A stretch of 62,981 nt of DNA, counting the filler, from an uncultured Methanosarcinales archaeon (lineage in GTDB: Archaea; Nanobdellota; Nanobdellia; Woesearchaeales; CAYNLP01), in the NCBI GenBank assembly GCA_964398115.1. It is 4 parts of 4 records of this genome, joined end to end, with 100 filler letters (N's around TTAATTAATTAA, not from the genome) between each part and the next. Parts side by side here need not be neighbours in the genome. Positions count along the whole stretch, not along the records: positions 16,027 to 31,841 come from CAYNLP010000022.1; 3 more parts are not named here. One strand, written 5' to 3'. How positions within the stretch are numbered: the stretch's first letter is position 1; every line of letters starts with the position of its first letter. The notes beneath the pieces are model-generated. The model had not been told where the DNA came from, searched no databases, and worked only from the letters and a program-made list of their open reading frames with translations. The position numbers and the translations under genes are program-made. Below are positions 15,927 to 47,611 of the stretch, piece after piece.

Positions 15927-16026
15927 NNNNNNNNNNNNNNNNNNNNNNNNNNNNNNNNNNNNNNNNNNNNTTAATTAATTAANNNNNNNNNNNNNNNNNN
16001 NNNNNNNNNNNNNNNNNNNNNNNNNN
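15927..16026. other. Artificial contig spacer
   Basis: N44-TTAATTAATTAA-N44 six-frame stop linker. Confidence 0.98.
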
Positions 16027-16066: not shown

Positions 16067-19000
16067 TTGACAAAGAAAAACCCACACAGGACTCTAGTGG
16101 TTGTCAACAGGAAAGAAAAGGCTGACCTCTCTTGTGAACAAGGAGCCTGGCACCTTGACATGGAAGGAAGCCCAGAAAACCTATATTTAGTTAATCCATC
16201 AACCGGTGAAGGAACACTAAAGCAAACTTACGAGGATGGACTTGGAAGCGTCGCCTCCTTCAATGATGGCAACAAGCTATACGGCTTAGAATGGGACGGA
16301 ACCAACACCGGAAACTTAACAGTACTAAATACGGATGGAACCCGAACCGATGTCGGACCAACAGGTCTTTCCGGAAACACGGTCGCGATGGAGTTTGGAC
16401 CTGACGGAACGCTTTACGCTGCCAACCAAGACAGTGACAAGCTATACACAATCAATTTGAGCACGGGCGCAGCCACACCCATCCATACTTTCAGTTCTCT
16501 TGATATAAACGGCGGAGACCTAACCGTCACCTCAGATAATACATTAGTATATGTGAGGAACAACGGAGAGGTCTGGACAGTTGACCTTGACGGTGGATTC
16601 ACCGAGACACACGTCGGAACGCTGAGCGGGACTTCAAGCATCACGAGTACAGCCTTACACAATGGACAGCATTATGCTATGGCTCGAGACGGTGACGAGT
16701 TCTACAAATTCGACATCAATCCATTTAACTCTTCCCTAGTGGATGACGAGATTGGACCTTTCAGTTACGGGGACGGAACTGCTTGTCCCGCACCTGAAAA
16801 AGACACGATAAAAGGAGTCAAGTGGAGTGATGAAGATAGAGATGGTGAGAGAGACGAAGAAGAATCAGGAGTTCCGGGATGGAAGATACTCATCCATCCA
16901 ACCGATGAAGAACCAGTAGAAACTTTAGAAGTTGACAGCGGTGATACAGAAGGAGAAGTCAGCCAAGTGTTGGAGAACGGCACGAAATACTTGATAGAAG
17001 TCAGCGGAACTTACAAGAACGCTATAAACAGAGATGAAAGTGAAAAAGCTGACGCCGAACACTCCACCCTTGACAACTGGGACACGCACAGGGACACCGT
17101 ACCTGACAGAGATGTCAAGATGCTAGACTTGGTCATGGACAATCAGAATGTTGACTGGGGAACTTTCAACGACGAACACCTATACAAGACTATAGTTGAA
17201 GGAGACGGAGAACAACACACCTTCAGAGTCTGGGATCAACCATCTGAAGGAGACTTGAGACCCGGTTGGTACGATGACAACGAAGGAACACTAACAGTAA
17301 ATATTTACGAAATCACGAGTGACGAAGTAGTAGTCACCGATGAAGAAGGTCATTACTCCAAGGAAGTAGAACCGAGAGAATACCAGATAGTCGAGATGCA
17401 GAGAGAAGGCTGGATCCAGACCGGACACCCCAGCAGACAACCCGACTACTGCCATATCAACACAACAGAGACAGAGACTGAAGGAGTAGAAGTTTGCAAC
17501 TTCGGCAACTATAAGAACTTCACAGAGCCGAAAGGCGACGTATTGATAACCAAGTACATCTGTGAAAACGGTACTGAAGTCACGAGAGAAGAGAACGGCC
17601 CCGACGTGGAAGGCAATCACGAAGCACCCGAAAAATGCAGAGTCGACGCGGGTCATGAATTCGCCTACACCTACCAATCTGAAAAAGAAGAAGGCGATCA
17701 GAGCGGGCCATATCCAAGAACTCCTAAAACTCAAATAGCCGGAGCCACCAACGGAACCGGACAGCTCTTGGTAGAAAACCTCAGCACGGTCGGAAGATAC
17801 AACTTCATGGAAACCGAAGACGAAGAATTGAGGGACGATGAGAAAGTGCTAGGATTCTACTGCTTCGGAGACGAAGGCAAGAGCACGGACAACCTCGACT
17901 TCACCTTCGTGGATGAAGAAGTGACAAGGCATTGCGTAGTATATAATAAGAAAGACGCATGCACGGCAGAGGAAGTAACGGTGCAGGAAGCCGACTATCC
18001 CGCTGACAGCGTGGCTGAAGAGAACCAAGGCTTGCAGAAGGACGGAGACTCCGTACCTTCTGTCAGGTCAGATTCTGAAGACGCGTTGGCGTTCAACGAC
18101 ACCAGATTCAACTTCTTCAGCCTCGGCTTTGGCGGCAACATAACCGTAGAGTTCGACAACCCAGCGCAGAACGAGATCGGACCGGACGTGAGAATCACTG
18201 AAGATACATACGGAAGCGGAGGATATCCGAATGAGACCGCAGCCGTGTACGCAAGCGAAGATGGAAGCAGCTGGCTGTTCCTCGGAACAGCAGACAACTT
18301 TGACGCTGCCACTAGCTCCAACGATCACTCAGTGAACGAATTCGACTTGAAAGGGTTGGATTACGCCAAGTACATCAGGATAGTTGATACGAGCAACGAA
18401 AGCGATTTCGGAGAAGGGTCCGGATCTAGAGGTCTTGACGCCGACGGCTTTGACATCAACGGCGTAGAAGCACTGCACGACTTCACAGATTGTAGAGCAT
18501 GTGAAGCTGAAAAGAACCTTGTTGCCAACGGAAACTTCGAAACACCTGAAGTTACTCACGAGAAAAACTGGGACATCTACGCTGACGGAACATCTGGACT
18601 TGAATGGAACGTTGAATGGGTAAGTCCAGAATCAGGCGCTCCCGAAGATGCAAATGTAGAATTGCATAAAGGAGTGCTTGGAGCAGCTGCGGAAGGCGAC
18701 CAGTACACAGAGCTTGACAGCGACTACGAAGGTCCTGGAAGCAGTGGTGGAGAAAGTGCAAGCACTATAATCACGCAAGAGATAGAAACAATCCCTGGTG
18801 AGGTCTACACAATCGAATTTAGCTTTTCACCAAGACCAGATACGAGTGTGACAAACAACTTCGTAGGAGTCAACATTGACGGAAATCAGAAAGCGAACTT
18901 CAGCGCGGACGGTAGTTCCAACACAGGCACGGATTGGGAGAACCACACTATCACGTTCGTGGCAGACAGCCCAACAACCACCATAGAGTTTGAAGACCTA

Positions 19001-20398
19001 GGAACGTCAGACTCTAAAGGAACTTTCGTAGACGACGTAAGAGCAACTTGTGTCCAAGAAAAAGAAGAGGAAGAAAAAGAAAATGTCACTCTAGCAGCAG
19101 GATGCACCGCATCTGACTACGGAGGCCAAGTATCACCAGGTCAAGTCAACGGTTCACTCGCAACCAATCAATCATGCAGTCTGATGAAGAATGTTACAAC
19201 GGGCGAGACTGCAACTGCAGATCCGGAAGTGTACTTCATGGTAGACTCCACCGGAAGCATGAGTGGAGCGATAAGCAACGTCCAAGCTAACATCGAATCA
19301 ATACTCAACTCATCCGTAGATGCTGACTTCGGAGCCGGAGACTACAAGGACTTCCCGGACGATGAATATGCATTTGAAAACAAACAATCCATAACCAGCA
19401 ACAAGTCCTTGGTGGAAGATGCCATCAATTCCATGTCTGCATCTGGAGGATCTGATGGCGCAGAAGGTCAGCTCTTCGCTCTCGACCAAATTGCGAATAG
19501 CGCAGCCGGATTCAGCTCTGACGCAACCAAGATAGTGGTGTGGTTCGGCGACGCACCGGGTCACGACCCGATATGCAGCGATATCAGCGGAGAGCCCGAT
19601 AACATCACAGAATCCAGCGCGATCAACGAATTAGTGGATGCGGGCATAACAGTCATAGCTATCAGCACCACCAGCGGATTCGACGACGCCTTAGATGACG
19701 ACCCAACCAGCAGTGCCTACGATTATTCCGGAACTTGCGTGATTGACGGGTCAAGCGGACAGGCAACCCGCATCGCAAACGCAACCGATGGAGTGCACCT
19801 GACAGAAGTAGGCGCATCCGACATAACTAACGCGATCATCAATTCCGTCGGCAACGCGACGTCAACCACTGACGTTGTGCCTGATGCCTCGGAGTGTGAA
19901 GCTCGCGGCTTAGCCGTAGACTTCTCACCTGATAAGTACGAAGATGTCGGAGCTCTCACAACGGTCAAGTTCAACGAAACCATAACGAGGACTGCCGCAG
20001 CTGGAAACGACACAGTAACCTGTGACATCCACTTCAGATCAGGAGAAGGAGGGGGAATCATAGGAACTCAAACCGTGAATCTCACCTGGGGAGCAGGAAA
20101 CGAAAGTACCGAAGACACTGATGAAAACGGTTCAGAAGATCCAGAAACTGCTGTCTTGGGTGGATTGAGCATTCCACACACAAGCAGCGGTAGAGACATG
20201 GGCACCTTCGGAACAGAAAGTAATGTTGAATTACTTTCAAACGGTCAAGGTGACAACTTACAAAGAGATAATTTGAGAGGTAGCGGAAGTTGCACCAGTT
20301 TTGTAGTAAAGAACAAATGGCCAAACGGCGGAGTTAGTAAAGAAGTAGTTCCGCAATTCTGTGGCTTCATAGGAAACGCTACAAAAGCTACAGAATAA
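16067..20398 (+). CDS. Giant multidomain surface/adhesin protein (beta-propeller, SdrD-B-like, jelly-roll/DUF642-like, vWA); 5' end probably lost at the contig break
   Basis: Propeller repeats (FGPDGTLYA, LYTINLSTGAAT), KGVKWSDEDRDG, SLGFGGNITVEF, NGNFETP..., vWA MIDAS DSTGSMS; acidic and Cys-paired; no signal peptide visible. Confidence 0.85.
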   Translation: MTKKNPHRTLVVVNRKEKADLSCEQGAWHLDMEGSPENLYLVNPSTGEGTLKQTYEDGLGSVASFNDGNKLYGLEWDGTNTGNLTVLNTDGTRTDVGPTGLSGNTVAMEFGPDGTLYAANQDSDKLYTINLSTGAATPIHTFSSLDINGGDLTVTSDNTLVYVRNNGEVWTVDLDGGFTETHVGTLSGTSSITSTALHNGQHYAMARDGDEFYKFDINPFNSSLVDDEIGPFSYGDGTACPAPEKDTIKGVKWSDEDRDGERDEEESGVPGWKILIHPTDEEPVETLEVDSGDTEGEVSQVLENGTKYLIEVSGTYKNAINRDESEKADAEHSTLDNWDTHRDTVPDRDVKMLDLVMDNQNVDWGTFNDEHLYKTIVEGDGEQHTFRVWDQPSEGDLRPGWYDDNEGTLTVNIYEITSDEVVVTDEEGHYSKEVEPREYQIVEMQREGWIQTGHPSRQPDYCHINTTETETEGVEVCNFGNYKNFTEPKGDVLITKYICENGTEVTREENGPDVEGNHEAPEKCRVDAGHEFAYTYQSEKEEGDQSGPYPRTPKTQIAGATNGTGQLLVENLSTVGRYNFMETEDEELRDDEKVLGFYCFGDEGKSTDNLDFTFVDEEVTRHCVVYNKKDACTAEEVTVQEADYPADSVAEENQGLQKDGDSVPSVRSDSEDALAFNDTRFNFFSLGFGGNITVEFDNPAQNEIGPDVRITEDTYGSGGYPNETAAVYASEDGSSWLFLGTADNFDAATSSNDHSVNEFDLKGLDYAKYIRIVDTSNESDFGEGSGSRGLDADGFDINGVEALHDFTDCRACEAEKNLVANGNFETPEVTHEKNWDIYADGTSGLEWNVEWVSPESGAPEDANVELHKGVLGAAAEGDQYTELDSDYEGPGSSGGESASTIITQEIETIPGEVYTIEFSFSPRPDTSVTNNFVGVNIDGNQKANFSADGSSNTGTDWENHTITFVADSPTTTIEFEDLGTSDSKGTFVDDVRATCVQEKEEEEKENVTLAAGCTASDYGGQVSPGQVNGSLATNQSCSLMKNVTTGETATADPEVYFMVDSTGSMSGAISNVQANIESILNSSVDADFGAGDYKDFPDDEYAFENKQSITSNKSLVEDAINSMSASGGSDGAEGQLFALDQIANSAAGFSSDATKIVVWFGDAPGHDPICSDISGEPDNITESSAINELVDAGITVIAISTTSGFDDALDDDPTSSAYDYSGTCVIDGSSGQATRIANATDGVHLTEVGASDITNAIINSVGNATSTTDVVPDASECEARGLAVDFSPDKYEDVGALTTVKFNETITRTAAAGNDTVTCDIHFRSGEGGGIIGTQTVNLTWGAGNESTEDTDENGSEDPETAVLGGLSIPHTSSGRDMGTFGTESNVELLSNGQGDNLQRDNLRGSGSCTSFVVKNKWPNGGVSKEVVPQFCGFIGNATKATE

Positions 20399-22663: not shown

Positions 22664-23464
22664 ATGGAGAACAAAGTATTATGGGTGTTAGTAACCGCGT
22701 TAATCCTCGTAGCTGGATACAACGCCTACAACATAGAACAAAACAGCCAACAAGTAAATGAGTTAAGGAAAAGCGTTGCAGAAGTAAGCGGACAACTCGG
22801 AACTGTCTCCTCCACCCTACAAAAAGATGTAGACACTAACGTTTCTCCCAGCACGACACGTTCCATGCCTATAGTAGCGGTGAGCAGAGAAGGCGAAGGC
22901 ATAGTGGGCAATGTCACTATCAAGTTAATCCCAGGCAACAATAACGTTTTGATAAACACCAACCCGTTCTTACGAGCCGATCTGCAATACAGCATGAACA
23001 AAGCCGTAGCGGTAGCAAAACAACACTCCCAGTCTGGTTTTGATAAAGACTACATTTTCAACTTCCAAGCAGGCCAAGCTCAACTCGTCGGAGGAGGAAG
23101 CGCTGGCGCCGCAGCCACTATAGGCGTCATAGCAGCATTACAAGACAAAAAATTAAACAAGAATGTAGCCATAACCGGAACAATAAACTCAGACGGGACT
23201 ATAGGAAGAGTCGGCGGGATTTTAGAAAAAGCAAGAGCCGCAGCCAACGCCGGCTACAACACTTTCTTAGTGCCAGAAGGACAAGCCCAAGTCACATATT
23301 ACGAGAGAGTGGTAGAAGAAAGACCTTCACGCTTCGGCTTCACAATTAGAGACACGACGTATCGTCCCAGAACTATTGACTTACGAGAAGAAGGCGAAGA
23401 ATGGAACCTCACTGTAGAAGAAGTTTCAAACATTGAACAAGCACTACCCCACTTCTTTAATTAA
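22664..23464 (+). CDS. Membrane-anchored Lon-type (S16) serine protease domain without ATPase
   Basis: N-terminal TM and coiled coil; VGGGSAG (Ser), TGTINSDGTIGRVGGILEKA (Lys) dyad. Confidence 0.88.
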   Translation: MENKVLWVLVTALILVAGYNAYNIEQNSQQVNELRKSVAEVSGQLGTVSSTLQKDVDTNVSPSTTRSMPIVAVSREGEGIVGNVTIKLIPGNNNVLINTNPFLRADLQYSMNKAVAVAKQHSQSGFDKDYIFNFQAGQAQLVGGGSAGAAATIGVIAALQDKKLNKNVAITGTINSDGTIGRVGGILEKARAAANAGYNTFLVPEGQAQVTYYERVVEERPSRFGFTIRDTTYRPRTIDLREEGEEWNLTVEEVSNIEQALPHFFN

Positions 23465-26951: not shown

Positions 26952-27434
26952 TTATTTTATCAAGGAAACTTCTGCTTCAACACTATTACTATCTAACGGG
27001 TTACCTTGGCTATCGCTAACAATCGCCGCGGTGATTTCAGGACTCGCTTCTCCACTACCCGTTTTAGAAAAGTAAGCCGTAGCGATAGTTCCACTACCAC
27101 TGACTCCACTATCTGAAACTCTAACAACGATTATGTCTTCAATAACTCCCGGCGTGTCAGGATTTTCATTCACACGGAAGAAAGTCTCAGCACCGTCTTG
27201 TTTCAAGAATGAACCTTCTTCAACCCTTTGATAATCCAGCAGTTGATCGTCATATTTCAAAGTGATTTGAGCTCCCGCTACATCATCTACATTATTAGCT
27301 TTCAAATCAACCTTAACTGTTTGACCAGAAACGTTATCACCACTGCCTTGCATTAAGAACAAACCAATAACGCCCACTATAACTATAGCGATAGCGACAA
27401 ATTGCAACTTGTTACCAGCCTTTGACTCTGCCAT
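26952..27434 (-). CDS. Membrane-anchored cohesin-domain protein
   Basis: N-terminal TM then GQTVKVDL.ANNVDDVAGAQITLKYD..LL.Y..VEEGSFL...SGSGTIATAYF, a cohesin consensus. Confidence 0.85.
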   Translation of the reverse strand: MAESKAGNKLQFVAIAIVIVGVIGLFLMQGSGDNVSGQTVKVDLKANNVDDVAGAQITLKYDDQLLDYQRVEEGSFLKQDGAETFFRVNENPDTPGVIEDIIVVRVSDSGVSGSGTIATAYFSKTGSGEASPEITAAIVSDSQGNPLDSNSVEAEVSLIK

Positions 27435-27597
27435 ACCCCTCTTTACAAAAGTCTTAGTATTAAAAACTTACGATTCTTCTTTAATATTCCTCAACTAAAG
27501 ACTAACTTAATTAGCACGAAAAACTATCCTAACTGTCAACACAACTTTTCCTAATCTATAAAAACTCTTTTTCAACCTTTATACCATAAAAATTTCT

Positions 27598-30500
27598 TTA
27601 TCTACCGCTGATATAAAATTCTCCGACCAGATGATAATCATCATGCTCGTTAGTTCCTCCTGCTATAGGATACCACTGGATACCATCAAACTTAGTAGAA
27701 GTATCTGTATCATCCGTCCATTGTATATCATCTCTCCCACCCATAAGTTCTCCATCCACCCAAAGCCTAGCCACACCATCGCCAGCCCCTACGCTAGATT
27801 CGCCTTTCAAGTACAACTCAACTTGCTGCCACTCACCCAATTTCCAAGTAGCATCATTACCTGCCAACCACTGACTCCCCGTTGGCCCAGTCTGCTTAGT
27901 AGGTATCATGGCCCCATTAGAAGAATGCGACAGATAATACTCTGTCGGCCCCGTAGCATCATCACCAAACACGCCACCACCATACCAATGCTTATGACCA
28001 TGCGACAAATCATAATTCGGATCATGATAAACCCAATAAGAAATATACAACTCCTGATAAGATTGAGAACCAATATCAGAAAAACTATCAAGAGTGGTCA
28101 AGCCACCACCTCTCTCTCCCGCAAAAGTCCTATACGCCAAAACAGAACCACTACCCACAGGATTAGGAGGAGCCGGACTCTCACCATCCGACAAAATCTC
28201 AACATTCCTCGGTTCCTCATCATTAGCCCACTTCGAAGTCTCACCCCAACCATCAAAATGCTTACGCTCACCTGTCATATTAAAAACCACGTTCATATTG
28301 GATGGCTCGTTAGGATGCAAACTGTCAGAAAAGTTACTACTAGAGCTTTCGGAAGATCCCCATCCAGGATTTTGGGTGTAAATCTTGACATCATCGAGAT
28401 GGAACTTGGTAAGGTTACGATATCCAACGTTAGCCCATCCAAACCATCTGATATGATCCCAATGCGTGTTAGCCGGATCTTCGGCGTTTAAGTCATATAA
28501 AGAAGTATTGGAATATATAAGTTCATCGTCCTTCCAAACTTCGACAACTCCGTTAGGCACACCGTCATCGCTAGTCTTCACATGCCAACGCATCCTATGC
28601 CAGTTTCCACGATCAGCACTTGTTAAATGATTGTCCTGAATATTTATATGACCCTTGCTAGTATGGGGGACGTAGTCGTGGCCTCGCGCCCACGTAACAT
28701 CTGCATTATTAAAGGTTGAATCATCACCCGGCCACATCGTTCCAGTAATAGCTACATCTTCACCACTACGACTACCTGCCCAAACTTGGAACCATTTATT
28801 ATTGTCAGGACCGTCGGGATCATTCTCATAACGGAAGTTTTCGGGAACCCTGATGTAATACTCAATCCACATCTCATTAGGGGAAGTACTAGAAAAATCT
28901 AGCTGCAATGCTGAACTAGAATCACCCAAGCCAGGCCGAGGAGCAAATGCGATGCTCATACTATTACTACCTGACCACGCATGTTCCCCTGTCACGGTAG
29001 TGTTCCCACCAGCACCCCAATTTCCACCCCAGCTAAAACCATTTTCCGAGTGTGAGAGATCTCCACTTTCAAAGCTGTCTTGGAATACCAGTCCGGTGGT
29101 ATTGGAAGTTCCAGTATCGCATACTCCACCTTCATCTACCTCTCCGTCGCAGTCATTATCCTCTCCATCACACACTTCTTCCGAAGGAGTACACGAATCA
29201 CCATCAGAGCCTTGAGAACCAGCTCCGACAATTCGTTGTACTATCCTTACAAGGTCAAAGACATTAACACTGCCATCACCATTCAAATCAAAACCACTGT
29301 CTGAACTACCAATATTCTGAGCAACCGTAACCAAATCAAAGATATTCACGCTGCCGTCTTGATTTATGTCTTCCTTGACAAAAGATGGGGTTTGAGATGT
29401 TCCATTTCTATTTTGATTATCGAATTTCTCATTCAATAAGGATTGTATTTTTTCTTCTGAGAGGGTGGTGTTGTATAGTCTGACTTCATCTATCAAGCCT
29501 TTTATATAGCCCGTTTGGTATGCTTCTCTCTGTGCCCATCCAATACGTAGAGGATTTTTGCTCGTATTCAAAGTCTCATTAGCTTCTAGTGTGGAAACTC
29601 TCGAACCATTTATGTAGAAACGCACTTCCGACCTGTTCCAAACCACTGTAAGCATTGCAAGTTCTTGATAGGGGAAGACGTAGCCAGTCCAGTGATCATC
29701 CCCCATGTGGGTAGCGGTCAGACGAGTTTTGCCACCAATGATGCTGTCGCCCCCGTTCTGCATTATCCCCCAAGACCTTCCACCTTTTGATATTATACCG
29801 TCTACTACTCCGCCGACAGAAAGATTATCTAGACGCACCCAAGCGTTGAAAGTATATTCATCTTGTAAATCTATAGTGGGACTATGCGGGATTCTAATCT
29901 CATCATCCACACCATCCATTAATAGTGCAGATCCATATCTGCCCTGAACCCACTTTGGATTCCCTTCTATAGTTCCGTAATTTTCATTTCCAGAAACGTC
30001 TGTCGCTGTTTCCCCACCGTTCTCATCCAATGGGTAGTAGGCTACCAGGTTCGGTTCGCTGACTGTACCGTTCAGTGCAGTGGATGCACAGCCTTCATCA
30101 ACTATACGGTCGCAATCGTTATCAGCTTCATCACATGTTTCTTCGGGCGGGGTGGGGCAACTGTTTGCACAAACTTGGTGAGTGCCACAGGTGTTGCCGT
30201 CGTAGTTGCAGGTTATGGTATCTTGAACGCTTGGGTCGTTATCGTCACAGTCATTGCTCCAAGTGGCATTGTCGTCATCCGCGTCTGTCTTGCTATAAGT
30301 GTTGTTAATCCAGCCAGGATTTTCACTGTAAAACTTAATATCGTCGATGTAATTCGCGGTTTCCTTGTTATAGCCTGCATTGGACCATCCCATGAGATAT
30401 CCTTGGGCCATGTAGTGGTTGCCGTCGGGCGCGCCGGTTACCACATCCGTTGCTTCCGAAACAAGTTTGTTATCAATCCACCACCTGTAGATACCGTTTG

Positions 30501-31191
30501 AAGCTCCTGCCGGGTCAGAGAGTTTCATATAAAATTGGAATTTATGCCATTGACCTCGATCGACGTAACCGTCCGGCGTGCCGTCAGTGCCGGATAGAGC
30601 TGGATCTACATTAGGAGCTTGAGTCAGTAGAGCACCGTCAGGGTTTCGGATTATGGTTGTGTAGACAGAGCCGCCGTCATAAGAGTCGCTTGGAGAGTTT
30701 GAGTTGGCTCCCCACTTGAAGCTATTGTCATAATGGTCTCCCCAAATCCTATTAAGCTTTACACCGCTTTGCGGGGCTGAAGGACACTCCCCATCTGAAG
30801 AATTGGAACCTCTATAATTAATTTCGTATTGGCTAACGTTTGGAAATCCTTCCGTGCCGTTGGGATAATAGACGTAGTACTCTAGCCACAATTCTTTTGT
30901 TTTTTGACCCATGGAAAAACCCATCTGAGCCCAGGCATCATCACACGGGTCACCGTTATTGTCATGCCATTTGAATTTGAGGGAGTAGTTACCCGATCTC
31001 GAGTTTTCATTCGTTATGCCAGCATTGACACTTCCTCCTTTGCTTGAATTTTCCCATAAAAACCCGTTGGTGCTGTGTGATAAATCCCCTGTTTCGAAAT
31101 CATCCGCAAAGAAAGGAGTCGCAGACTGAGCTTGAACAGCAGATAAAGAAAGAAGAAAAACCAACAAAAGCGATAAAAATAACTTCTTCAT
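27598..31191 (-). CDS. Secreted dockerin-containing protein with three polysaccharide-lyase/lectin-like jelly-roll domains, LamG and MopE-like Cys/Asp repeats
   Basis: Signal peptide; duplicated dockerin EF-hand DINQDGSVNIFDL / DLNGDGSVNVFDL (about 29229-29373); LamG (YYPLDE...GLIDEVRLYN); EETCDEADNDCDRIVDEG and EEVCDGEDNDCDGEVDEG repeats. Confidence 0.88.
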   Translation of the reverse strand: MKKLFLSLLLVFLLSLSAVQAQSATPFFADDFETGDLSHSTNGFLWENSSKGGSVNAGITNENSRSGNYSLKFKWHDNNGDPCDDAWAQMGFSMGQKTKELWLEYYVYYPNGTEGFPNVSQYEINYRGSNSSDGECPSAPQSGVKLNRIWGDHYDNSFKWGANSNSPSDSYDGGSVYTTIIRNPDGALLTQAPNVDPALSGTDGTPDGYVDRGQWHKFQFYMKLSDPAGASNGIYRWWIDNKLVSEATDVVTGAPDGNHYMAQGYLMGWSNAGYNKETANYIDDIKFYSENPGWINNTYSKTDADDDNATWSNDCDDNDPSVQDTITCNYDGNTCGTHQVCANSCPTPPEETCDEADNDCDRIVDEGCASTALNGTVSEPNLVAYYPLDENGGETATDVSGNENYGTIEGNPKWVQGRYGSALLMDGVDDEIRIPHSPTIDLQDEYTFNAWVRLDNLSVGGVVDGIISKGGRSWGIMQNGGDSIIGGKTRLTATHMGDDHWTGYVFPYQELAMLTVVWNRSEVRFYINGSRVSTLEANETLNTSKNPLRIGWAQREAYQTGYIKGLIDEVRLYNTTLSEEKIQSLLNEKFDNQNRNGTSQTPSFVKEDINQDGSVNIFDLVTVAQNIGSSDSGFDLNGDGSVNVFDLVRIVQRIVGAGSQGSDGDSCTPSEEVCDGEDNDCDGEVDEGGVCDTGTSNTTGLVFQDSFESGDLSHSENGFSWGGNWGAGGNTTVTGEHAWSGSNSMSIAFAPRPGLGDSSSALQLDFSSTSPNEMWIEYYIRVPENFRYENDPDGPDNNKWFQVWAGSRSGEDVAITGTMWPGDDSTFNNADVTWARGHDYVPHTSKGHINIQDNHLTSADRGNWHRMRWHVKTSDDGVPNGVVEVWKDDELIYSNTSLYDLNAEDPANTHWDHIRWFGWANVGYRNLTKFHLDDVKIYTQNPGWGSSESSSSNFSDSLHPNEPSNMNVVFNMTGERKHFDGWGETSKWANDEEPRNVEILSDGESPAPPNPVGSGSVLAYRTFAGERGGGLTTLDSFSDIGSQSYQELYISYWVYHDPNYDLSHGHKHWYGGGVFGDDATGPTEYYLSHSSNGAMIPTKQTGPTGSQWLAGNDATWKLGEWQQVELYLKGESSVGAGDGVARLWVDGELMGGRDDIQWTDDTDTSTKFDGIQWYPIAGGTNEHDDYHLVGEFYISGR

Positions 31192-31293
31192 AAGTCAACT
31201 ACTCTTCCTCTTACTATAAAAAAGTTTCTGTATAATTATTTTCGATATTGATAATAAATATGACTTAATCTCTAAGAAATTTATAGATATAGG

Positions 31294-31841
31294 CTACCAA
31301 CCAGGATCTTTATCATAAATCCTATAATTATCTATATAGAAAGTTGTGTCATTTCTATAACCAGCGTTACACCAACCCATTATCCTATGCATACTGAAGT
31401 AGTTGTCACCTTCCGAAGCACGAAGCTCTGCACCACCTTTCCCTTTGCCAGAATAAATTTGCTCTCCATCCTTCCAAACCTCTATCAAAGAATCGTTAGC
31501 GTTAGGACCACTCGCAGCCCTAAGATGGAATTGTAAATGCATCCACCTTCCCCTATCCGACTCTGTAATAAAAGGATCCTGAATAGTTTGCGCCCCAGTA
31601 AAACTACCGTCTTCATGCACTTGCACAATCAACTCTGAAATACCAGAACTAGAAGGATACAAATTGAATTGCGCCGCTACCATCTCACTATCATTCACAT
31701 TACTCCGTCCCTTGTTATAAACTCGAGTGAACTTTCTAAGGTCATTGCCTGAAGCGTCTCCATGATCATAATTATCCGGGATCCTCAATTGGAACTCAAC
31801 CCACACCTCTCTCACATCAGTCCTAGGCGTCCACTCACTAT
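31294..31841 (-). CDS. Lyase-like jelly-roll domain protein, paralogous to domains in the neighbouring dockerin protein; 5' truncated by the contig end
   Basis: Frame open up to the gap; WVEFQLRIPDNY, DRGRW, GWCNAGYRN, IDNYRIYDKDPGW. Confidence 0.8.
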
Positions 31842-31941
31842 NNNNNNNNNNNNNNNNNNNNNNNNNNNNNNNNNNNNNNNNNNNNTTAATTAATTAANNN
31901 NNNNNNNNNNNNNNNNNNNNNNNNNNNNNNNNNNNNNNNNN
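31842..31941. other. Artificial contig spacer
   Basis: N44-TTAATTAATTAA-N44. Confidence 0.98.
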
Positions 31942-47511: not shown

Positions 47512-47611
47512 NNNNNNNNNNNNNNNNNNNNNNNNNNNNNNNNNNNNNNNNNNNNTTAATTAATTAANNNNNNNNNNNNNNNNNNNNNNNNNNNNNNNNN
47601 NNNNNNNNNNN
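47512..47611. other. Artificial contig spacer
   Basis: N44-TTAATTAATTAA-N44. Confidence 0.98.

Follow-up and report, generated by a model that had tools for sequence, protein, structure and literature searches.

A putative non-cellulosomal cohesin-dockerin system for surface display of lyase-like proteins in a small-genome archaeon

The stretch of DNA analysed here (the window, 62,981 nucleotides) comes from the genome of an uncultured archaeon placed in the Woesearchaeales (assembly GCA_964398115.1), and the final 4.9 kb of one of its contigs, C22, hold a locus in which a cohesin gene stands beside a dockerin gene. Three reading frames make up this locus, and they and all their features lie on the minus strand. 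The central frame (27598-31191) encodes a secreted multidomain protein of 1197 amino acids (aa), recognised by Pfam and a hydrophobicity scan, and the frame that follows it (26952-27434) encodes a membrane-tethered protein of 160 aa with a single cohesin module, recognised by Pfam, AlphaFold2 (AF2) and Foldseek. An earlier interpretation, made from the nucleotides alone and referred to here as the sequence-only reading, had placed the cohesin gene directly downstream of the 1197-aa gene on the same strand, and this is what we find, with a gap of 163 bp (27435-27597, read from the sequence) between the two. The third frame (31294-31841) encodes the C-terminal fragment of a polysaccharide lyase-like (PL-like) protein and is open to the contig end. 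It had been regarded as a further, paralogous gene upstream; the paralogy stood (phmmer 5.7e-24 against PL-like domain b of the 1197-aa protein; PF14099 at 26.7 bits, below the cut-off of 29.9), and the separate gene did not. The frame has no stop codon up to base 31839, C22 ends at 31841, and we rejected a small stand-alone paralogous gene because the frame runs off the contig end and the gene is incomplete.

The upstream fragment and the 1197-aa gene are separated by 102 bp, with an A/T-rich TATA-like element ~25-35 nt 5' of the start codon. The 163-bp spacer contains a T-run 3' of the stop codon of the dockerin gene, an A/T-rich, TATA-like tttttaata that precedes the cohesin ATG by ~25-33 nt and, immediately 5' of that ATG, a purine-rich agagggg. 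Judging by their sequence, these spacer elements may act as promoter and terminator.

The 160-aa protein is a genuine member of the cohesin family, by profile as well as by fold. The Pfam Cohesin hidden Markov model (HMM; PF00963) matches residues 36-142 with 36.5 bits against a cut-off of 24.1 (35.8 bits in the whole-genome scan). The AF2 model, based on a 27-sequence alignment (26 homologues and the query), reached a mean predicted local distance difference test (pLDDT) score of 90.6 and shows residues 9-28 as a helix, with an all-beta domain after it. Together with the hydrophobicity scan it delimits a transmembrane helix (residues 9-28; 27351-27410), and together with Pfam a cohesin beta-sandwich (residues ~36-160; 26955-27329). 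Foldseek against the PDB returned 50 matches at E<=0.001, and each of the matches listed is a cohesin module, in keeping with the nine-stranded beta-sandwich (jelly roll) of solved cohesins. At the top stands 2xdh, the non-cellulosomal cohesin from Archaeoglobus fulgidus (E 4.8e-06, template-modelling (TM) scores 0.52/0.59), ahead of cellulosomal cohesins of types II and I and cohesins of Clostridium perfringens, with TM scores of ~0.6 for type II. A profile of the 27 small homologues searched against PDB sequences likewise matches type II cohesins and 2xdh. The sequence-only reading had seen in this protein a membrane anchor and one cohesin domain only, and the Pfam score, the AF2 model and the 2xdh fold match bear this out. 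Neither a cysteine nor an obvious cleavage site occurs in the hydrophobic segment, which suggests an uncleaved signal anchor with the cohesin outside the membrane.

Searched exhaustively with phmmer, 1.84 billion representatives yielded 1645 matches at E<=0.001 (176 at E<=1e-10), and among the best 150 of these 1645 are at least 26 further single-cohesin proteins of 136-198 aa. These 26 homologues have no room for a second module, and most start with a hydrophobic N-terminal segment as judged by eye. A word-indexed protein search with the 160-aa protein matched only the protein itself, and used as a single query it found no relative locus in named genomes.

The 1197-aa protein consists, in order, of a signal peptide, PL-like domain a, a Cys-rich linker, LamG, a dockerin, a second Cys-rich linker, PL-like domain b and PL14-like domain c. 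It begins with MKKLFLSLLLVFLLSLSAVQA, and the hydrophobicity scan delimits a Sec-type signal peptide at residues 1-24 (MKKLFLSLLLVFLLSLSAVQAQSA; 31120-31191) and no hydrophobic segment past residue 24. The LamG domain (PF13385, Laminin_G_3; residues 426-583; 29443-29916) scores 73.5 bits against a cut-off of 27.6, and the match spans the full profile, positions 1-151. Pfam and the hydrophobicity scan thus confirm what had been proposed for this protein: it is secreted, combines a duplicated dockerin with LamG and three lyase-like domains, and has no anchor of its own. We also observed that the Cys-rich stretch after domain a contains a weak MopE-like motif and that a second such motif follows the dockerin. 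Motifs of this type (C-D-x-x-D-x-D-C-D) occur at 29092-29214 and 29917-30309, in a cohesin protein elsewhere in the source genome (G000:C6:6574-8883) and at loci L008, L009 and L013; they adjoin cohesin or dockerin modules in the source genome and three relatives and may form a disulfide- or metal-stabilised linker.

The dockerin occupies residues 607-654 (DINQDGSVNIFDLVTVAQNIG ... DLNGDGSVNVFDLVRIVQRIVG; 29230-29373) and is a genuine family member by HMM, Dockerin_1 (PF00404; cut-off 22.9 bits) scoring 30.3 bits on the whole protein and 46.2 bits on the segment taken alone. HMM scans for Cohesin and Dockerin_1, which the sequence-only reading had proposed as a check, therefore place both modules above their curated cut-offs. 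Dockerin calcium loops follow the consensus D-x-[ND]-x-[DN]-G-...-D, each loop leading into a helix, and both 12-residue loops are intact here (DINQDGSVNIFD then LVTVAQNIG, and DLNGDGSVNVFD then LVRIVQRIVG). The two halves are near-identical, DINQDGSVNIFDL and DLNGDGSVNVFDL agreeing in 10/13 residues. Among PDB sequences the segment is matched best by a C. perfringens hyaluronoglucosaminidase fragment that includes a dockerin (2jnk/2ozn) and next by cellulosomal dockerins; its matches to EF-hand models are weak.

The three remaining domains are lyase-like by HMM, fold and language-model features, and may be catalytic. Jelly-roll domains a (residues ~32-286; 30334-31098) and b (residues 695-945; 28357-29109) are paralogous by phmmer within the genome and match PF14099 with 37.9 and 35.7 bits, respectively (the latter over residues ~707-898), against a cut-off of 29.9. 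The AF2 model of domain b, built on an alignment of only six sequences, has a pLDDT of 66.9 and a predicted TM score (pTM) of 0.76. Its top Foldseek matches are the PL20 glucuronan lyase 2zzj, Cip1, TtX122 and PL36 and PL14 alginate lyases, with TM scores of 0.5-0.63, and generic ConA-like lectin folds are matched as well. Only 2 homologues of domain b were found in the word-indexed search. Domain c (residues 940-1197; 27601-28374) is assigned by PF21294 and the ESM Atlas: the profile reaches 39.5 bits over two stretches of the whole protein and only 20.4 bits for domain c alone, and PF14099, PF21340 or PF21294 is found in the clusters closest to it in the ESM Atlas. Against PDB sequences, domains a and c gave no match at E<=1.

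Six-frame scans with Pfam-based and custom HMMs found exactly three cohesin modules and three dockerins in the source genome, which we label G000 (G001, G002 and so on denote relatives of the same order). One cohesin is that on C22; the other two, both above the Pfam cut-off, belong, at residues ~30-160 and ~295-415, to a single 770-aa protein on contig C6. This protein begins with a signal peptide, is Cys-rich in its middle, has a C-terminal transmembrane helix and gave no match to a carbohydrate-binding module (CBM). The dockerins lie on C22, C17 and C40. Those on C17 and C40 are 67% identical to that of C22 over the aligned segment, and the helix residues are largely conserved among the three, which are close paralogues. 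The count of other dockerin proteins that the sequence-only reading had called for thus yielded three in the genome, and with them a second membrane-anchored cohesin protein. Both additional dockerin frames run off contig ends, that on C40 starting inside the dockerin. In the C17 protein a PL-like end and the dockerin are joined to a C-terminal region without a Pfam match, which resembles a beta-helix by eye; the C40 protein comprises the dockerin, a putative LamG-like stretch and two PL-like domains. A single-domain PL-like gene 3' of the C40 dockerin gene (C40:483-1235, minus strand) is split over three frames, either as a pseudogene or through assembly errors. We also noted that the contig ends of C17 (start), C40 (end) and C22 (end, 31841) fall in or beside PL-like or dockerin coding sequence. 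The assembly seems to have been interrupted at repeated sequence, and the true number of dockerin genes may therefore exceed three; the family has probably been collapsed or broken in the assembly.

We surveyed 61 genomes of the same order, including G000, nearly all of them from different families. At E<=0.001 a cohesin was found in 8/61 and a dockerin in 14/61 (12 of these over the cut-off), and both modules are present in six: G000, G003, G004, G025, G041 and G044. This co-occurrence is ~3x that expected (6 observed against ~1.8; one-sided Fisher p=0.0012, or 0.0038 with G000 left out), p values that are optimistic given the relatedness among the genomes. In 4/6 of these genomes (G000, G004, G025 and G044) cohesin and dockerin genes are clustered, lying on the same contig within a few kb. 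Co-occurrence of the pair in relatives, which the sequence-only reading had named as a check on itself, was seen in 6/61 genomes, G000 included, with clustering in four. In G004 (C62) the gene for an 852-aa dockerin protein is directly followed by that for a protein with CBM96 and a cohesin, and in G025 (C125) several cohesin and dockerin genes are adjacent. The latter locus (L010, G025:C125:4000-16000) also encodes an 806-aa protein in which a cohesin is fused to a squalene-hopene-cyclase/prenyltransferase-like alpha-alpha toroid and, separately, a 693-aa protein whose single chain combines a cohesin, PKD and a weak dockerin.

A parallel to the C22 locus comes from G044, at 2.7 Mb the largest genome of the sample. 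At L008 (G044:C6:73000-89044) four genes for dockerin-tailed proteins, one of them PL8 and another chondroitinase-B-like, are followed on the same strand by the gene for an 881-aa cohesin/fn3/MopE protein and then by that for a small cohesin protein of 169 aa, which is the same gene order as on C22. In total, the dockerin-tailed genes of G044 form three tandem arrays (L008, L024 and L025), with 13 open reading frames (ORFs) matching Pfam Dockerin_1 at E<=0.001, 15 dockerin matches in the genome scan and two further ORFs with dockerin-like tails by eye. The cargo attached to these dockerins includes Golvesin_C, GHL15-like, PL8 with malectin, chondroitinase-B-like and DUF362 domains, and G044 would seem to represent, for this archaeal order, a complete cohesin-dockerin system loaded with enzymes. 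In the small cohesin proteins of G044 and G002 we noted lipobox-like signals (LVAAC, LLAAC), which suggest that a single socket tethered to the membrane is arrived at there by another route.

Altogether, we consider it probable, on the evidence of domain content and gene neighbourhood, that the C22 locus belongs to a non-cellulosomal cohesin-dockerin system for the surface display of lyase-like proteins in a small-genome archaeon. In the mechanism that we propose, the 1197-aa protein would be exported by Sec and, having no anchor of its own, would be retained through its internal dockerin, which, loaded with calcium, would plug into a cohesin tethered to the membrane. The adjoining 160-aa protein with its one N-terminal transmembrane helix would be the most likely socket because of its adjacency and the parallel gene order in G044, and the two cohesins of the C-terminally anchored 770-aa protein on C6 may also accept the dockerin. 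LamG and the three PL-like jelly-roll modules would thereby be held at the cell surface, and two further proteins with nearly the same dockerin would share the sockets. Once displayed, the modules would most likely bind, and possibly cleave, acidic polysaccharides of the uronic-acid type near the cell, a target suggested by the cargo, which is lyase-like and LamG in this genome and enzyme-like in G044. What the analysis shows is the identity of the modules, the topology signals, the gene order and the co-occurrence with clustering in relatives; binding, the partner cohesin, catalysis and the substrate are what we infer. The interpretation offered by the sequence-only reading is, overall, partly supported.

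Several observations weigh against this proposal. Jelly-roll lyases typically have a set of His, Tyr, Arg and Gln residues, and no invariant set of this kind is evident in the six-sequence alignment of PL-like domains, whose invariant columns consist mainly of W, G, P, N, D and K. Because of this, and of the moderate confidence of the domain b model, the PL-like domains may be lectins instead of enzymes. No full-length homologue of the 1197-aa architecture was found in the word-indexed protein search, where nearly all of the 33 matches are restricted to the LamG region. Most characterised dockerins are C-terminal, as are those of the dockerin-tailed proteins of G044, whereas the present one is internal, between LamG and a PL-like domain. 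The 163-bp spacer has its own TATA-like element, so that the 1197-aa and cohesin genes may be transcribed separately and need not share a transcript. Finally, the two modules do not always travel together: the dockerin matches of G003 fall under the Pfam cut-off, which reduces the strict overlap to 5/8; eight of the 14 dockerin genomes have no cohesin match and two of the eight cohesin genomes no dockerin match; the same-genus G001 (83% complete) has neither module; and the same-family G002 (84% complete) has two cohesin proteins and no dockerin match.

One challenge to the proposed pairing concerns the socket, which could in reality be the 770-aa, two-cohesin protein on C6, the 160-aa cohesin then binding another partner or being redundant and its position beside the dockerin gene incidental. 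With its signal peptide, two cohesins over the Pfam cut-off and C-terminal transmembrane helix the C6 protein is scaffoldin-like, the small cohesin is distant from its modules (phmmer 7e-12 and 1e-4), so that specificities could differ, and the cohesin gene has a promoter-like element of its own. However, only one dockerin type was found in the genome and a second cohesin specificity would therefore have no visible partner; in G044, moreover, the small cohesin gene also ends a dockerin cluster holding a larger cohesin protein, which suggests that both sockets serve the same plugs. We regard this alternative as unlikely. It is more improbable still that the modules do not interact at all, the dockerin-like EF-hand pair being a calcium-stabilised linker and the small protein a generic anchored beta-sandwich. 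The internal position of the dockerin, its weak matches to EF-hand models and the 8/14 dockerin-positive relatives that have no cohesin match would fit such an explanation. Yet both modules exceed curated family thresholds, the cohesin fold matches solved cohesins that bind dockerins, the co-occurrence is ~3x chance (6 against ~1.8), and the genes are clustered in 4/6 genomes.

A different question is what the displayed modules act on. They might be aimed at a host cell, as the sequence-only reading had considered possible; on this view they would attach to its glycocalyx, capsule or S-layer glycans, or open these, in an episymbiotic or predatory lifestyle, and would not serve feeding on free polysaccharide. 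Host-dependent DPANN archaea have small genomes, and the source genome is small too (1.0 Mb, 91% complete). Adhesins commonly contain LamG and lectin-like jelly rolls, and the best PDB match of the dockerin is the C. perfringens hyaluronoglucosaminidase fragment, an enzyme that presumably joins non-cellulosomal cohesin-dockerin complexes attacking host glycans. Set against this, nothing in the examined locus or genome ties the system to a host, and the richest system occurs in the largest genome (G044), with what looks like a polysaccharide-degrading set, malectin included, as cargo, which fits nutrient scavenging. In the available part of their paper, Cai et al. 2021 (PMC8091004) likewise read the secreted carbohydrate-active enzymes of DPANN archaea as serving to feed on environmental carbohydrates. 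A host-directed role is speculative and, in our judgement, rather improbable; the observations agree no less well with the scavenging of acidic polysaccharides from the environment.

Returning to surface display of lyase-like proteins, a more far-reaching version of it can be put forward as a tentative idea, which we think rather unlikely as a whole. Archaea of this order, that of the ~1-Mb source genome among them, might assemble a membrane-bound 'lyase-some' for acidic polysaccharides; it would be used at contact with a partner cell or with its capsule or matrix of extracellular polymeric substances (EPS), and might represent the first enzyme-loaded cellulosome analogue in DPANN archaea. Its cargo would, on this tentative view, be PL20/PL14-like here and PL8, chondroitinase-B-like and GHL15-like in the relative with at least 13 dockerin enzymes. 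It could conceivably even constitute a modular, exchangeable machine of DPANN archaea for host interaction or matrix digestion, a suggestion that we hold with equal reserve.

Non-cellulosomal cohesins and dockerins have been known in archaea since the work on A. fulgidus, and the system of that organism (2xdh) resembles the present one in its archaeal host and non-cellulolytic context, as well as being the best fold match and a sequence-profile match of the small cohesin. It differs in that the cohesin protein described here consists of a transmembrane helix and one module, adjoins a dockerin protein with LamG and three PL-like domains and belongs to a genome of ~1 Mb. OlpA and OlpC of Clostridium thermocellum (3ul4, 4dh2, both among the Foldseek matches of the 160-aa protein) and Sca2 of Ruminococcus bromii are alike in that one cell-bound cohesin takes up enzyme dockerins with no large scaffoldin. 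Their anchors are SLH (S-layer homology) domains or sortase attachment to the Gram-positive wall, in contrast to the N-terminal transmembrane helix in an archaeal membrane found here (lipobox-like in relatives), and their cargo is cellulase or amylase instead of lyase-like. The glycoside-hydrolase complexes of C. perfringens, whose cohesins 2vo8, 2jh2 and 2w1n are also among the Foldseek matches, share with our system a non-cellulosomal pair that gathers enzymes for complex, partly acidic glycans. In these complexes the secreted enzymes of a bacterium are linked to each other, whereas the present socket has a membrane anchor and belongs to an archaeon; sequence identity is low.

The bacterial cellulosome uses the same two module families, and the G044 cluster, in which dockerin-tailed carbohydrate-active genes are followed by cohesin genes, is reminiscent of it. 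Cellulosomes are built on a many-cohesin scaffoldin with CBM3 and on dockerin-tailed cellulases; in the source genome, in contrast, the largest cohesin protein has two modules and no CBM match, and the C22 dockerin is internal. A strict cellulosome was rejected, as the Pfam matches of the dockerin proteins are to PL-like, LamG and Cys-rich motif families and to no cellulase or cellulose-binding family, and the mini-cellulosome of the sequence-only reading survives as an analogy only. What is particular here is the minimal anchor protein adjoining its presumed client, the internal dockerin and the PL-like cargo, which is echoed by the larger enzyme set in G044.

Among published archaeal systems, the networks of anaerobic methanotrophic (ANME) archaea are similar in kind: the accessible part of Chadwick et al. 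2022 (PMC9012536) presents cohesin and dockerin proteins that are not linked to cellulose and are proposed to organise surface proteins, and states, with reference to Bayer 1999 and Haimovitz 2008, that the bonds between archaeal cohesins and dockerins are specific and strong. The ANME proteins have up to five cohesins and other cargo (PMC9012536, same part), compared with three modules of each kind and PL-like cargo here. Dockerins have been discussed, in the portion available of PMC10066038, as possible adhesins of ultra-small bacteria (Omnitrophota). For DPANN metagenome-assembled genomes, the available text of PMC8091004 describes secreted carbohydrate-active enzymes including polysaccharide lyases and makes no mention of cohesin or dockerin. 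In the literature on cohesin or dockerin in DPANN-type taxa and on polysaccharide lyases of Woesearchaeota we found no such system described, most subscription journals lying outside the coverage of the search.

The source assembly amounts to 1.0 Mb in 67 contigs and is 91% complete. Its archaeal identity is indicated by two TATA-binding protein (TBP) repeats of 106 and 104 bits, a control that was positive only in four archaeal control genomes, and the DPANN/Woesearchaeota label fits the genome size, same-order relatives ranging from 0.6 to 2.7 Mb. The window joins four contigs with N spacers: C21 (1-15926), C22 (16027-31841), C23 (31942-47511) and C24 (47612-62981). The N joins at 15927-16026, 31842-31941 and 47512-47611 have a 12-base separator inside, and arguments from neighbourhood are invalid across them. 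The cohesin-dockerin locus itself is chromosomal: its neighbours on C22 include the housekeeping genes HisRS and GatB and an LPG_synthase_TM membrane protein, and the genes flanking the C6 and C17 proteins look ordinary (ORF translations inspected by eye). Two DNA sequencing runs, from one study and both labelled sediment metagenome, contain the window, and no RNA run containing it was found among the run listings.

Two other genes on C22 deserve mention in their own right. A large, probably surface-exposed protein of 1443 aa with VWA_4 and DUF642 is encoded at 16067-20398 (plus strand), where the G+C content is 0.47-0.51 compared with ~0.38 elsewhere; that of the dockerin gene is also raised (0.42-0.44). 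At 22664-23464 (plus strand) lies the gene for a 266-aa protein that has one N-terminal hydrophobic segment and only the proteolytic domain Lon_C, with no ATPase part.

The locus described here bears on how ultra-small archaea hold surface proteins, feed and touch other cells. It offers a simple two-part assay, composed of a cohesin of 130 residues and a dockerin of 60 residues, which could reveal by what means a cell lacking wall-anchoring machinery retains the glycan-active proteins that it secretes. Should the lyase-like domains prove active, sediment archaea with small genomes would directly degrade uronic-acid polysaccharides, and, if the proposed system is real, the plug-and-socket principle of the cellulosome would extend to polysaccharide lyases in archaea.

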